From Candidatus Altimarinota bacterium (GTDB lineage: Bacteria > Patescibacteriota > Gracilibacteria > BD1-5 > UBA2023): 64,000 nt of DNA. The translations under genes and the position numbers were made by a program. Shown here piece after piece: positions 25,067 through 26,368 of the stretch (position 1 is its first letter; the number at the start of each line of letters is the position of its first letter). The stretch spans positions 3,535-67,534 of the forward strand of contig JAYUDN010000024.1 of NCBI GenBank assembly GCA_043739785.1, written 5' to 3'. A model generated the notes under the pieces. That model did no database searches, was not told the DNA's origin, and worked only from the letters and a program-made list of their open reading frames with translations.

Positions 25067-26368
25067 ATGAAAAAACCTTTTTCTTTTACGCTGGAGGCGA
25101 TCGACGGACAAGCTCGTGCGGGTATTATCGAGACCCCCCATGGACTCATCCATACCCCAACCTTTATGCCAGTCGGAACGCAGGCGGCGATGAAGGGGCT
25201 CACGCGTGAACAGCTCCTCTCTACGGGGGCGGAGATTTCACTCGTCAATACGTATCATACCTATCTCGAACCAGGACATGAAACGATTCGAGCCTTCGGT
25301 GGACTGCACCAGTTTATGGGGCACCCGCTTCCGATACTGACCGATAGTGGGGGATTTCAGGTTTTTTCACTTGGTTCCCAGATGGAAAAGAAGCACTTCG
25401 AAAAGGGTAGACGGCAGATTGAGAATAAATGAAGAATGAAGAATGAACAATGAAGAATAGAGGAGAAAGAGAATGATTTCTTGAAAATAGATTCCGCATC
25501 AAGTGCGGAATGACGGAAGCCACAATCCCTCGTCAAAATCACCGAAGATGGAGTCCATTTTCGTTCGCATCGAGATGGTTCGAAACACTTTTTTACGCCT
25601 GAATCCGTGATGGAGATCGAGGAAGCGCTCGGGGCGGATATCATCATGGCGTTCGATGAGTGTGCCAGCGGTGAATCGACTCATGCCTATGCGCGGAAGG
25701 CGATGGAACGTACTCATAGATGGGCAACCAGATGTGTAGGGAGGCATACCGAACTTCAAAAAATGAGGGAAGGGGAGGGGCTTCCGTACCAGGCCCTTTT
25801 CGGGATTATCCAGTGAGTGGTGTTCGATGATCTCAGAGTCGAGTCCTGTAAGTATATCTCAGATCTCGATACTCCTGGGATCGCTATCGGTGGACTCTCG
25901 GTCGGCGAATCGAAAGAAGATATGTACCGGATCCTCGATGTGCTCGCACCGATTCTTCCGGTCGATAAGCCTCACTACCTGATGGGAGTCGGAACACCAG
26001 AAGACCTCGTCGAAGGGATTGCTCGGGGGATTGATATGATGGACTGCGTCCTGCCGACTCGACTCGCGCGCCATGGTGTCGCCTTCTCGATGTATGGAAA
26101 CTGTAAGATTACCAATGCGAAGTATGCTCTCGAGACATCGGGCATCCCAGTCCATCCAGAGCTCTCGACCATCGTCTCACGGGAGTACTCTCTCGGGTAT
26201 CTGAAGCACCTCTATACTGCCGGTGAGTCGCTTGCCGGTATGCTCGTCTCCATGCACAATATCGAATACTTGACTAATATAGCTCGGAAGTCACGAGAAG
26301 CCATCCTCGCTGGGGAATTTGAAGCATTTCGACAGAAATTCTTCAGTGAGATGAATCTGAAGAAGTAG
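25067..26368 (+). CDS. tgt: Queuine tRNA-ribosyltransferase carrying a roughly 49-codon in-frame insertion
   Basis: Pieces 25067..25432, 25607..25816 and 25817..26368 share one frame. ..[12 protein letters not shown].. is followed by [insert], then ..[56 protein letters not shown]... Confidence 0.9.
25379..25525 (+). other. In-frame repeat-element-like insertion within tgt
   Basis: The segment contains heptads AAATGAA GAATGAA GAATGAA CAATGAA (25427-25454). It also contains GATTCCGCATCAAGTGCGGAATGACGGAAG (25490-25519), an 8-bp-stem copy of the GTCATTC..GAATC element family. Three of the gene's four TGA codons lie here. Confidence 0.6.

Follow-up and report, generated by a model that had tools for sequence, protein, structure and literature searches.

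The gene for queuine/preQ1 tRNA-ribosyltransferase (tgt) in a code-25 Gracilibacteria genome raises the question of how some fifty codons of repeat-like DNA came to lie, in frame, inside a conserved region of an enzyme, and what these codons are. The gene is located in a 64-kb stretch of contig JAYUDN010000024.1 (the entire analysed stretch is called the window below), and a preliminary description made from the sequence had placed about 49 extra codons between two conserved Tgt motifs. Alignment of the window protein to Protein Data Bank (PDB) chains with phmmer supported this. Residues 4–105 corresponded to residues 13–114 of the Zymomonas mobilis TGT and residues 154–426 to its residues 113–378, thus residues 106–153 have no counterpart in the solved Tgt structures. 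The insertion point lies between GGFQVFSLG and SLVKITEDG, where the Z. mobilis enzyme carries no extra residues. Since the same insert was found in an independent Gracilibacteria metagenome-assembled genome (L001, 91% amino acid identity, the reference for all dN/dS and block-difference figures given here) and in fragments of other assemblies, it is not an assembly artefact. It interrupts, in frame and in a lineage-specific manner, a tgt gene that is conserved and functional in all other respects, and it is composite rather than one element: it combines purine-rich sequence that evolves rapidly with a microsatellite of GAATGAA units and one CGTC-tagged repetitive extragenic palindrome (REP) in antisense orientation. 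It is probably a composite passenger, either selfish or neutral, which a surface loop of the functional enzyme tolerates. The coordinates of all features are collected in Table 1.

The identity of the gene was supported by PF01702 homologues named Tgt in other Gracilibacteria, which matched the window protein, and by the phmmer match to Z. mobilis TGT (E = 3e-101 among PDB chains). Comparison of the core, that is, tgt outside the insert, with L001 gave a synonymous divergence (dS) of 0.98, a nonsynonymous divergence (dN) of 0.031 and an omega of 0.03, and neither the catalytic Asp residues nor the substrate-pocket motifs varied among 74 aligned homologues, which points to strong purifying selection on the core and to a functional gene. 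The preliminary description called tgt an "essential-type" gene; conserved and functional it appears to be, but the label is loose, as tgt is dispensable in E. coli. A structural model was generated with AlphaFold2 (AF2) from the alignment of the 74 homologues, using the Tgt version with W at the TGA positions. Its mean predicted local distance difference test score (pLDDT) was 87.7, and Foldseek superimposed it on the Z. mobilis TGT (1ozm) with a TM-score of 0.94 and an rmsd of 2.1 Å. In this model, the GGFQVFSL helix is prolonged through the insert to residue 132 (pLDDT 59–75), residues 133–155 are disordered (pLDDT below 50), and the insert is predicted to lie outside the intact TIM barrel, which answers the call of the preliminary description for a structure prediction. 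As a separate observation, the cysteines of the zinc site (approximately 26150–26200, residues ~362–381) are replaced by L, T and S in the window protein with the His ligand kept; the CxCxxC site is present in Z. mobilis TGT and in the homologue P0117, and the cysteines are missing from most Gracilibacteria homologues.

The composite nature of the insert became apparent when its blocks were compared with L001 separately, as the substitutions are concentrated in the left stretch and in the spacer (Table 1). Over its whole length, the insert gave a dN of 0.159, a dS of 0.258 and an omega of 0.62, suggesting that it evolves nearly neutrally at the protein level. There were no inverted repeats at the insert ends, and neither terminal inverted repeats nor a target-site duplication were found around the insert or around the hairpin unit within it, so identity with a miniature inverted-repeat transposable element (MITE) was rejected. 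The sole flanking direct repeat, AGATGGA (25380 and 25546), is conserved coding sequence and is expected by chance. Rfam produced no match to the tgt gene at E ≤ 1 save a chance miRNA match elsewhere in the gene, by which an intron, a ribozyme or another RNA family was rejected. An intein was dismissed because the segment comprises 48 amino acids and lacks Cys/Ser/Thr...HN-Cys/Ser/Thr junctions. A Rickettsia palindromic element of the RPE-1 type was discarded since only approximately 30 nt of the insert recur elsewhere.

The REP-like unit reads CGTCATTCCGCACTTGATGCGGAATC (26-mer) on the minus strand and is laid out as CGTC-ATTCCGCA-CTTGA-TGCGGAAT-C, where the arms ATTCCGCA and TGCGGAAT are 100% complementary and form a perfect 8-bp stem with 5 nt between them. 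The corresponding RNA hairpin had a ΔG of −11.8 kcal/mol (z = −2.8), and the unit was identical in L001. The motif GATTC-N-GAATGACG occurred three times in the window compared with 0.2 expected, and one of 100 shuffles reached this number. This architecture is that of the CGTC-tagged REPs. As defined by Di Nocera, De Gregorio and Rocco (2013; PMC3733652), such a repeat carries CGTC (or TGTC/CCTC) at one end, its stem measures 8–9 bp and starts with AT, its loop has 4–5 nt, and its tail is unpaired, short and in most cases CCA. The class takes in RPE-4/RPE-6 of Rickettsia and dRS3 of Neisseria; most copies are intergenic, but some lie in frame within open reading frames (ORFs), among them genes of tRNA-modifying enzymes, and no dedicated transposase was known for these repeats (PMC3733652). 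The tgt unit shares the CGTC tag (25515–25512), the 8-bp stem starting with AT and the 5-nt loop, whereas its tail is CTA instead of CCA; three further copies in the window, associated with a nuclease gene cassette or of the same type and described below, have CCA(G). It differs from the surveyed repeats in that its host is a code-25 member of Gracilibacteria, from a phylum outside that survey, and in that it adjoins a heptad microsatellite.

A second known system, in which the repeat is linked to a nuclease, was described by Chenal et al. (2025; PMC11893778). The repeat NTS, CGTCATTCCCGCGMAVGCGGGAATCYRG, is bound as single-stranded DNA by SsnA, a nuclease of 94 aa with a single GIY-YIG domain, and cut a few nucleotides upstream. 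The ssnA gene is typically located between such units, and both cleavage and binding depend critically on the GTC that precedes the palindrome and on the C that follows it (PMC11893778). In Neisseria, transformation is modulated by NTS repeats, which are concentrated around certain genes (PMC11893778). Compared with NTS, the tgt unit (CGTCATTCC-GCACTTGATGC-GGAATCTAT) keeps both the upstream GTC and the C after the palindrome, although the GC part of its stem is one bp shorter. Like the Ssn system, the window contains a repeat-gene-repeat cassette with a 95-aa single-domain GIY-YIG protein, a putative nuclease, flanked by units resembling the Ssn-related motif (SRM, the repeat of such systems); however, the cassette arms represent a different, degenerate stem variant. 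The Ssn/NTS paper discusses neither intragenic copies nor Patescibacteria (PMC11893778). Rickettsia palindromic elements, as summarized in PMC10969869 from Ogata et al. (2000, 2002), lie in frame in genes of housekeeping enzymes and encode surface segments compatible with the fold. The likeness consists in an in-frame repeat in a housekeeping enzyme of a small-genome, host-dependent bacterium. RPE-1-type units, as presented in that summary, are ~100–150 bp long and each encodes a conserved peptide, whereas the dispersed unit in tgt covers only ~30 nt, microsatellite and low-complexity sequence make up the other part of the insert, and there is no sequence relationship to RPE-1. Finally, the short non-autonomous hairpins tied to a single-copy nuclease or transposase gene flanked by repeats recall REPs with their REP-associated tyrosine transposases (REP/RAYT, REPIN) and MITEs, but the gene in the window encodes a GIY-YIG nuclease and not an HUH tyrosine transposase.

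To follow the dispersal of the unit, metagenome contigs were scanned for CGTCATTCCGCA-N3-7-TGCGGAATC, which yielded at least 120 contigs (L090–L209) and 128 copies among the matches listed. The exact 26-mer of tgt was present in at least 120 metagenome contigs of other organisms with 27–60% GC content, and none of the matches listed lay in a tgt gene. Among the listed copies, 93 of 128 had the CTTGA loop of the tgt type, and CAG was the commonest tail (58/128). As the similarity to the insert was limited to insert positions ~106–141, the dispersed unit is approximately 30 nt long and not 147 nt. The metagenome units (CGTCATTCCGCACTTGATGCGGAATC) were often accompanied 10–30 nt further on by a second, different inverted unit, ctggattcccgc...gcgggaatgac, and 16 of the 128 listed copies were in frames open for at least 600 nt in the standard code, thus some of them may be intragenic.

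The window cassette has the order repeat-gene-repeat with inverted arms and stands between dnaN (262–1380) and pheS. The tag CGTCATTC and the tail GAATCCAG of its left arm agree with the NTS consensus CGTCATTC...GAATCYRG. The longest pheS ORF (1808–2875) opens at an ATG within the right-hand repeat (GAATGACG), so the true start of pheS is probably further downstream. The encoded 95-aa protein had no specific match in NCBIfam and only weak UPF0213 matches in PDB (E ~0.1). By its size and its single domain, it would be a candidate member of the Ssn nuclease family (cd10448). Two metagenome contigs link such genes to the stem found in tgt. L176 contains an ORF homologous to window 1461–1748 (E = 4e-29) with TGTCATTCCGCACTTGATGCGGAATCCAG upstream and more units at its 3′-end, and L128 contains another (E = 1e-24) between two CGTCATTCCGCAGAAATGCGGAATCCAG units; in both cases the flanking repeats are of the form TGTC/CGTC-ATTCCGCA...TGCGGAATCCAG, that is, they have the tgt-type stem. 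The tgt unit is a member of a family of hairpins that are widely dispersed and accompany genes of small GIY-YIG nucleases. The preliminary description had already compared it with the cassette arms and with the solo copy at 10640–10669. The kinship holds at the level of the superfamily (CGTC tag, ATTC...GAAT ends, C after the palindrome): the cassette arms keep CGTCATTC...GAATCCAG, but all three copies differ from the tgt unit in the stem (ATTCTGAG... against ATTCCGCA), and blastn found no link between them and the tgt hairpin. The published strict SRM pattern, HGTCWYN(0-2)YYVSBRHN(0-5)WNVSBRGN(0-2)RNCYNB, gave no match in the window, although it recognized a control NTS sequence; for the tgt copy, this failure is due to the stem being one G-C pair shorter. 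A relaxed pattern was not enriched in the window either (5 found, ~3 expected). Consequently, the family assignment rests on the defined features and on the metagenome copies.

The heptads left of the hairpin have a different distribution. Tandem Repeats Finder (TRF) called AATGAAG x4.4 at 25428–25458 and TCTTCAT x4.3 at 29835–29864, the latter beside a gene identified as rpoB by its Rpb2 domains. The motif GAATGAAGAATGAA with at most two mismatches had eight matches in the window, six of them in these two arrays, compared with 1.9 expected, and none of 100 shuffles reached eight. When the insert (25379–25525) was searched against the window by blastn, as the preliminary description had suggested, the rpoB-leader array was the sole match (26/29, E = 4e-4), so that within the window the insert recurs only by its heptads, in a non-coding leader. 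The correspondence of the two arrays proposed there was thus borne out by TRF, the motif search and blastn. L001 has six near-perfect heptad units at the same tgt position, and related heptads occur in the tgt loops of other relatives (L083, GTGAAAA x4; L085, AAAAATG x3–4). That the heptads form part of the mobile unit was rejected, as only 2 of the 128 listed metagenome SRM copies were near a period-7 array and their units were unrelated.

Several side observations concern these arrays. Period-7 arrays were seen in the window at 22708–22729, 23361–23382, 25427–25447, 29835–29864 and 39663–39687, as well as in the tgt loops of L083 and L085, and every one of them contains TGA(A) (GAATGAA, GGTTGAA, CTGAAAA, GTTATGA, AAGTGAA, AAATGAA). 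Three are situated in variable gene loops (a MoxR-like linker, tgt and ung), and the others in leaders. On the minus strand, the tgt heptad (TTCATTC) is one base away from the repeat tag plus stem start (GTCATTC), and the rpoB-leader array contains an exact CGTCATTC. Another conserved enzyme of the window, the uracil-DNA glycosylase encoded by ung, is likewise interrupted in frame, immediately behind its catalytic GQDPYH motif; the insertion starts with a (GGTTGAA)x4.9 array (39663–39696), in-frame TGA included, and a search for a hairpin in this insert found none. Upstream of rpoB (~29650–29770), the leader has two hairpins, each followed by a T-run, CCCGAGTCTTCGGGAAGTTTTGGG and CTCGGTAGGGCTACTGAGCGTTTTATAC. 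This leader is conserved and common to L087 (~8440–8560), has no Rfam match and could be an attenuator or a leader RNA.

Table 1. Positions in the 64-kb window of the tgt gene, the parts of its insert and the related repeats and genes
Feature	Position	Strand	Remarks
tgt (queuine/preQ1 tRNA-ribosyltransferase)	25067-26368	+	433 aa, TGA read as Gly; translation
In-frame insertion in tgt	25382-25525 (or 25379-25525, 49 codons)	+	residues 106-153, 48-49 extra codons
Left stretch of insert	25379-25426		11/48 nt differ from L001
Heptad block of insert	25427-25456		1/30 nt differ from L001
Spacer of insert	25457-25486		9/30 nt differ from L001
Hairpin block of insert	25487-25525		2/39 nt differ from L001, both beyond hairpin
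Heptad microsatellite (G/A)AATGAA x4.4	25427-25458	+	encodes KGRMKNEQGR; TRF
Solo CGTC-tagged REP / NTS-like hairpin	25490-25515	-	plus strand translated as DSASSAEGR
Parts of tgt hairpin	tag 25512-25515; stem arms 25504-25511 and 25491-25498; loop 25499-25503; C after palindrome 25490	-	
In-frame TGA codons of tgt	25430, 25451, 25511, 25814	+	three of four within insert
TGA codons of insert	25430-25432, 25451-25453, 25511-25513	+	
Fourth in-frame TGA	25814-25816	+	opposite conserved Gly of Z. mobilis TGT IQQG motif
GATTC-N-GAATGACG occurrences	1419-1443; 10643-10666; 25490-25515	-; +; +	
Left cassette arm, SRM-like unit CGTCATTCTGAGCTTGCGAAGAATCCAG	1419-1446	+	tag CGTCATTC, tail GAATCCAG; internal stem degenerate
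GIY-YIG nuclease gene (Ssn-like)	1461-1748	+	95 aa, single domain; PF01541 E=5e-10, no other domain
Right cassette arm	1751-1816	-	SRM-like ends inverted (1754-1813), loop ~35 nt longer
Solo cassette-type SRM-like unit, downstream of atpG	10640-10669	-	same stem variant as cassette arms
rpoB-leader heptad array, GAATGAA/GAATGAC on minus strand	29835-29864	-	TRF; blastn
ung insertion	39655-39780 (ung 39448-40224)	+	42 residues (70-111) instead of 3, PDB alignment to 3zoq

The comparison of Tgt orthologs proposed in the preliminary description revealed no loop of constant length but a hypervariable site with different hairpins in different lineages. The loop that connects the GGFQVFSL helix to the SLVKITE strand was compared among 119 Tgt homologues from Gracilibacteria: its median length was 11 residues and its maximum 55 (52 in the window protein by the same measure); it was 16 residues or shorter in 87 homologues and at least 25 residues long in 17. 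This loop is thus expandable in Gracilibacteria. The long loops hold unrelated repeat-type peptides such as TPNPSPKGEG, NPPSPLVRGA and DFSTPAAASTRNDK. SRM-type hairpins with a TGTC tag were found in the tgt loops of L082 and L083, in the latter preceded by the heptads, while a second hairpin family, CCCCCC-TTGTCA-GGGGGG, AAACCCCCC..CCCCCCTTGTCAGGGGGG-CTGAGAC, occupies the loop in L081 and L087 and, in degenerate form, in L085. The second family is not confined to the loop: in L081 and L082 it was also found upstream of the tgt core, and in L087 in an intergenic position. Further G+C-rich hairpins were seen in the loops of L210 and L211. The conspecific L081 and L082 are 97.7% identical over 4.7 kb, whereas about 90 nt of their tgt loops are wholly different; the flanks of the loop are no more diverged than average, and both alleles recur in other assemblies. 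This difference looks like the replacement of a whole loop rather than a clean insertion. The short allele (QMEKKNFSKNPNSSEK) is scattered over the star-like neighbour-joining tree of the core protein, and the long alleles share flanks. The preliminary description had pictured the landing of a single element in tgt; such a landing is not supported, as the loop was already enlarged and hypervariable in the clade and differs between conspecific strains by whole-loop replacement.

Each of the four SRM-bearing loop alleles carries the hairpin in antisense orientation to tgt. The window copy was scored as terminator-like on the minus strand and not on the coding strand, and 3′ of it the minus strand reads CTATTTTC, followed by a pyrimidine-rich, T-rich tract. 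A hairpin in sense orientation would presumably terminate tgt transcripts and be selected against, whereas the antisense one may be tolerated because its terminator-like side faces the minus strand. An explanation of the orientation by the replication strand was dropped, as the GC skew of the window is weak. Repeat-type peptides were also observed in the N-terminal extensions of many Tgt relatives (P0005, P0008, P0018, P0067 and P0131), for example NPPVSPLLRGV, which derives from a CCCCCCTTCTCAGGGGGG hairpin (L081, 5152–5260; L082, 2072–2180). Such an extension is polymorphic within one species (P0131 compared with P0003), and therefore hairpin repeats accumulate at a second site of tgt, its 5′-end.

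How the insert could be accommodated in the reading frame is explained by the genetic code of the host. Frame 0 of the window loop has no TAA or TAG, while frames 1 and 2 have two each, and ten long loop alleles that were examined were all open in frame. TGA made up 15 of 418 codons (3.6%) in the long loops of these 10 alleles and 69 of 4703 (1.5%) elsewhere in the genes, a 2.5-fold enrichment (Fisher p = 0.004), which is the signature expected of sequence not evolved as coding. The count of three of the four TGA codons of tgt in the insert, given in the preliminary description, was reproduced by translation. A GAATGAA array of at least three units puts TGA in every frame, and the hairpin reads GAA TGA CGG in the frame used; therefore the insert would be untranslatable if TGA were a stop. 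The fourth TGA provides direct support for TGA = Gly by its alignment to the conserved Gly of the IQQG motif, where homologues show G or W (the database translates TGA as W). The preliminary description held that the segment could stay translatable only by TGA recoding. This is true of the insert as it stands, but since REPs and RPEs are found in frame in bacteria with the standard code (PMC3733652; PMC10969869, the latter as a summary of the original work), recoding is no general prerequisite. The window contains only two tRNA genes, Gly(GCC) (54339–54415) and Phe(GAA) (55288–55363), so the UGA-reading tRNA is encoded outside it.

Considering these results, the passenger explanation would work as follows. 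The insert would be transcribed and translated into an E/K/R/G-rich helix and a disordered linker projecting from the TIM barrel; it is translatable because its length is a multiple of 3, in-frame TAA/TAG are absent and each of its three TGAs codes for Gly. The hairpin would have reached the loop, or been exchanged into it, by the process that disperses such repeats; to judge from SsnA/NTS and REP/RAYT, this process probably makes use of single-stranded DNA together with nicking or recombination. The heptads would have arisen by slippage, and the protein would have gained nothing essential. The second in-frame heptad-bearing insert of the window, in ung, also counts for a passenger. Some points weigh against it. 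The mobile repeat proposed in the preliminary description stands for the ~30 nt that are demonstrably dispersed, but not for the heptads, the left part or the rest of the 147 nt. The window has only one copy of the tgt-type stem variant as opposed to three of another, and the strict SRM pattern misses all of them. From a star-like tree, neither the order of events nor independent insertions can be reconstructed. Retrieval of the homologues as intact proteins introduces an ascertainment bias on open frames, and we infer the translation of the insert from its intact frame. Furthermore, the 40-nt run of identity with L001 over the hairpin was not significant (P = 0.21, uniform-mismatch model); it was thus abandoned as proof of constraint, and the argument about constraint is left to the dN/dS contrast.

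This last point bears on the idea that the hairpin is kept as a nucleic-acid element, as an Ssn cleavage or recombination site that influences recombination or transformation around tgt or as an antisense terminator, its coding being a side effect. The synonymous divergence of the insert is four times below that of the core (0.26 compared with 0.98), the hairpin and its flanks are identical in L001 and terminator-like on the minus strand, NTS repeats cluster near genes and affect transformation in Neisseria, and the loop is hypervariable as are genes beside dRS3 repeats (PMC11893778). Nevertheless, close relatives have a short loop or another hairpin family at the same site, so no single element is needed, and constraints within the repeat family or a recent arrival would explain the conservation equally well, which together with the insignificance of the identical run makes such a role unlikely. 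It is quite improbable that the insert is an adaptive protein extension, for example a helix contacting tRNA, a partner subunit or the host cell, for which the repeats were only the source. The predicted helix up to residue 132, of moderate model confidence, and the same insert length kept in two species at a dS of ~1 would suit it, but the dN/dS of 0.62 against 0.03 in the core, the pLDDT below 50 at residues 133–155, the unrelated sequence and length of the loop among close relatives and even within one species, and the conservation of DNA repeats rather than of amino acids argue otherwise. Phase variation, in which Tgt would be turned off or on by the frameshift that results when one 7-nt unit is added or deleted, could draw on the six near-perfect units of L001, on the recurrence of heptad arrays in coding loops and leaders of the window genome and on 7 not being a multiple of 3. 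However, the window array is degenerate (4.4 imperfect units), no allele with a shifted frame was encountered, substitutions and not unit number distinguish the window from L001, and arrays of 4–6 units rarely slip, thus we regard it as very improbable. Absence of the insert from the mature protein, by intron-like removal from the RNA or by ribosome bypass, for which T4 gene 60 and the mitochondrial byp elements are precedents, is scarcely credible: the hairpin and the high TGA density of the insert would suit it, but it is contradicted by the lack of Rfam matches and of intein motifs, by a length of 147 nt that is too short for known self-splicing introns, by the failure to find matched take-off and landing codons, and by the 10/10 long alleles in frame with no TAA/TAG in frame 0, which an excised or bypassed sequence would not need.

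Intragenic CGTC-tagged REPs and RPEs are already known, and the Ssn/NTS system was described in 2025. New here are the code-25 Gracilibacteria host with TGA codons inside the element read through, the combination of the hairpin with TGAA-containing heptad microsatellites, and the repeated occupation of one enzyme loop by different hairpin families with polymorphism within a species. A bolder proposal, which we consider doubtful, is that the Tgt loop is an active insertion or exchange site for Ssn/SRM and other hairpins and that the TGAA heptads, both those adjacent to hairpins and those in further coding loops such as that of ung, are scars or by-products of single-strand nicking and repair. 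If this were true, L081/L082 and the short and long alleles would form a natural before-and-after series for the dispersal mechanism of CGTC-tagged REPs, and coding loops would have become accessible to such elements, to a greater extent than in standard-code bacteria, once TGA no longer acted as a stop. Apart from these subjects, the window contains a 108-bp tandem duplication (43798–44017, 99% identity, TRF score 433), which overlaps the small minus-strand ORFs 43308–43820 and 43913–44197.

For annotation, the finding means that gene calling with code 11 splits tgt at the insert and that repeat-derived peptides, those at the N-terminus included, inflate the apparent protein novelty of such genomes. 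Housekeeping genes that contain hairpin repeats in frame were known from Rickettsia and a few other bacteria; this locus adds the Candidate Phyla Radiation and a genome in which a stop codon has been reassigned, and it ties intragenic CGTC-tagged REPs to the SsnA/NTS nuclease-repeat system. The polymorphic loop alleles could serve for studies of the movement of such repeats and of the amount of junk sequence that an enzyme loop tolerates.

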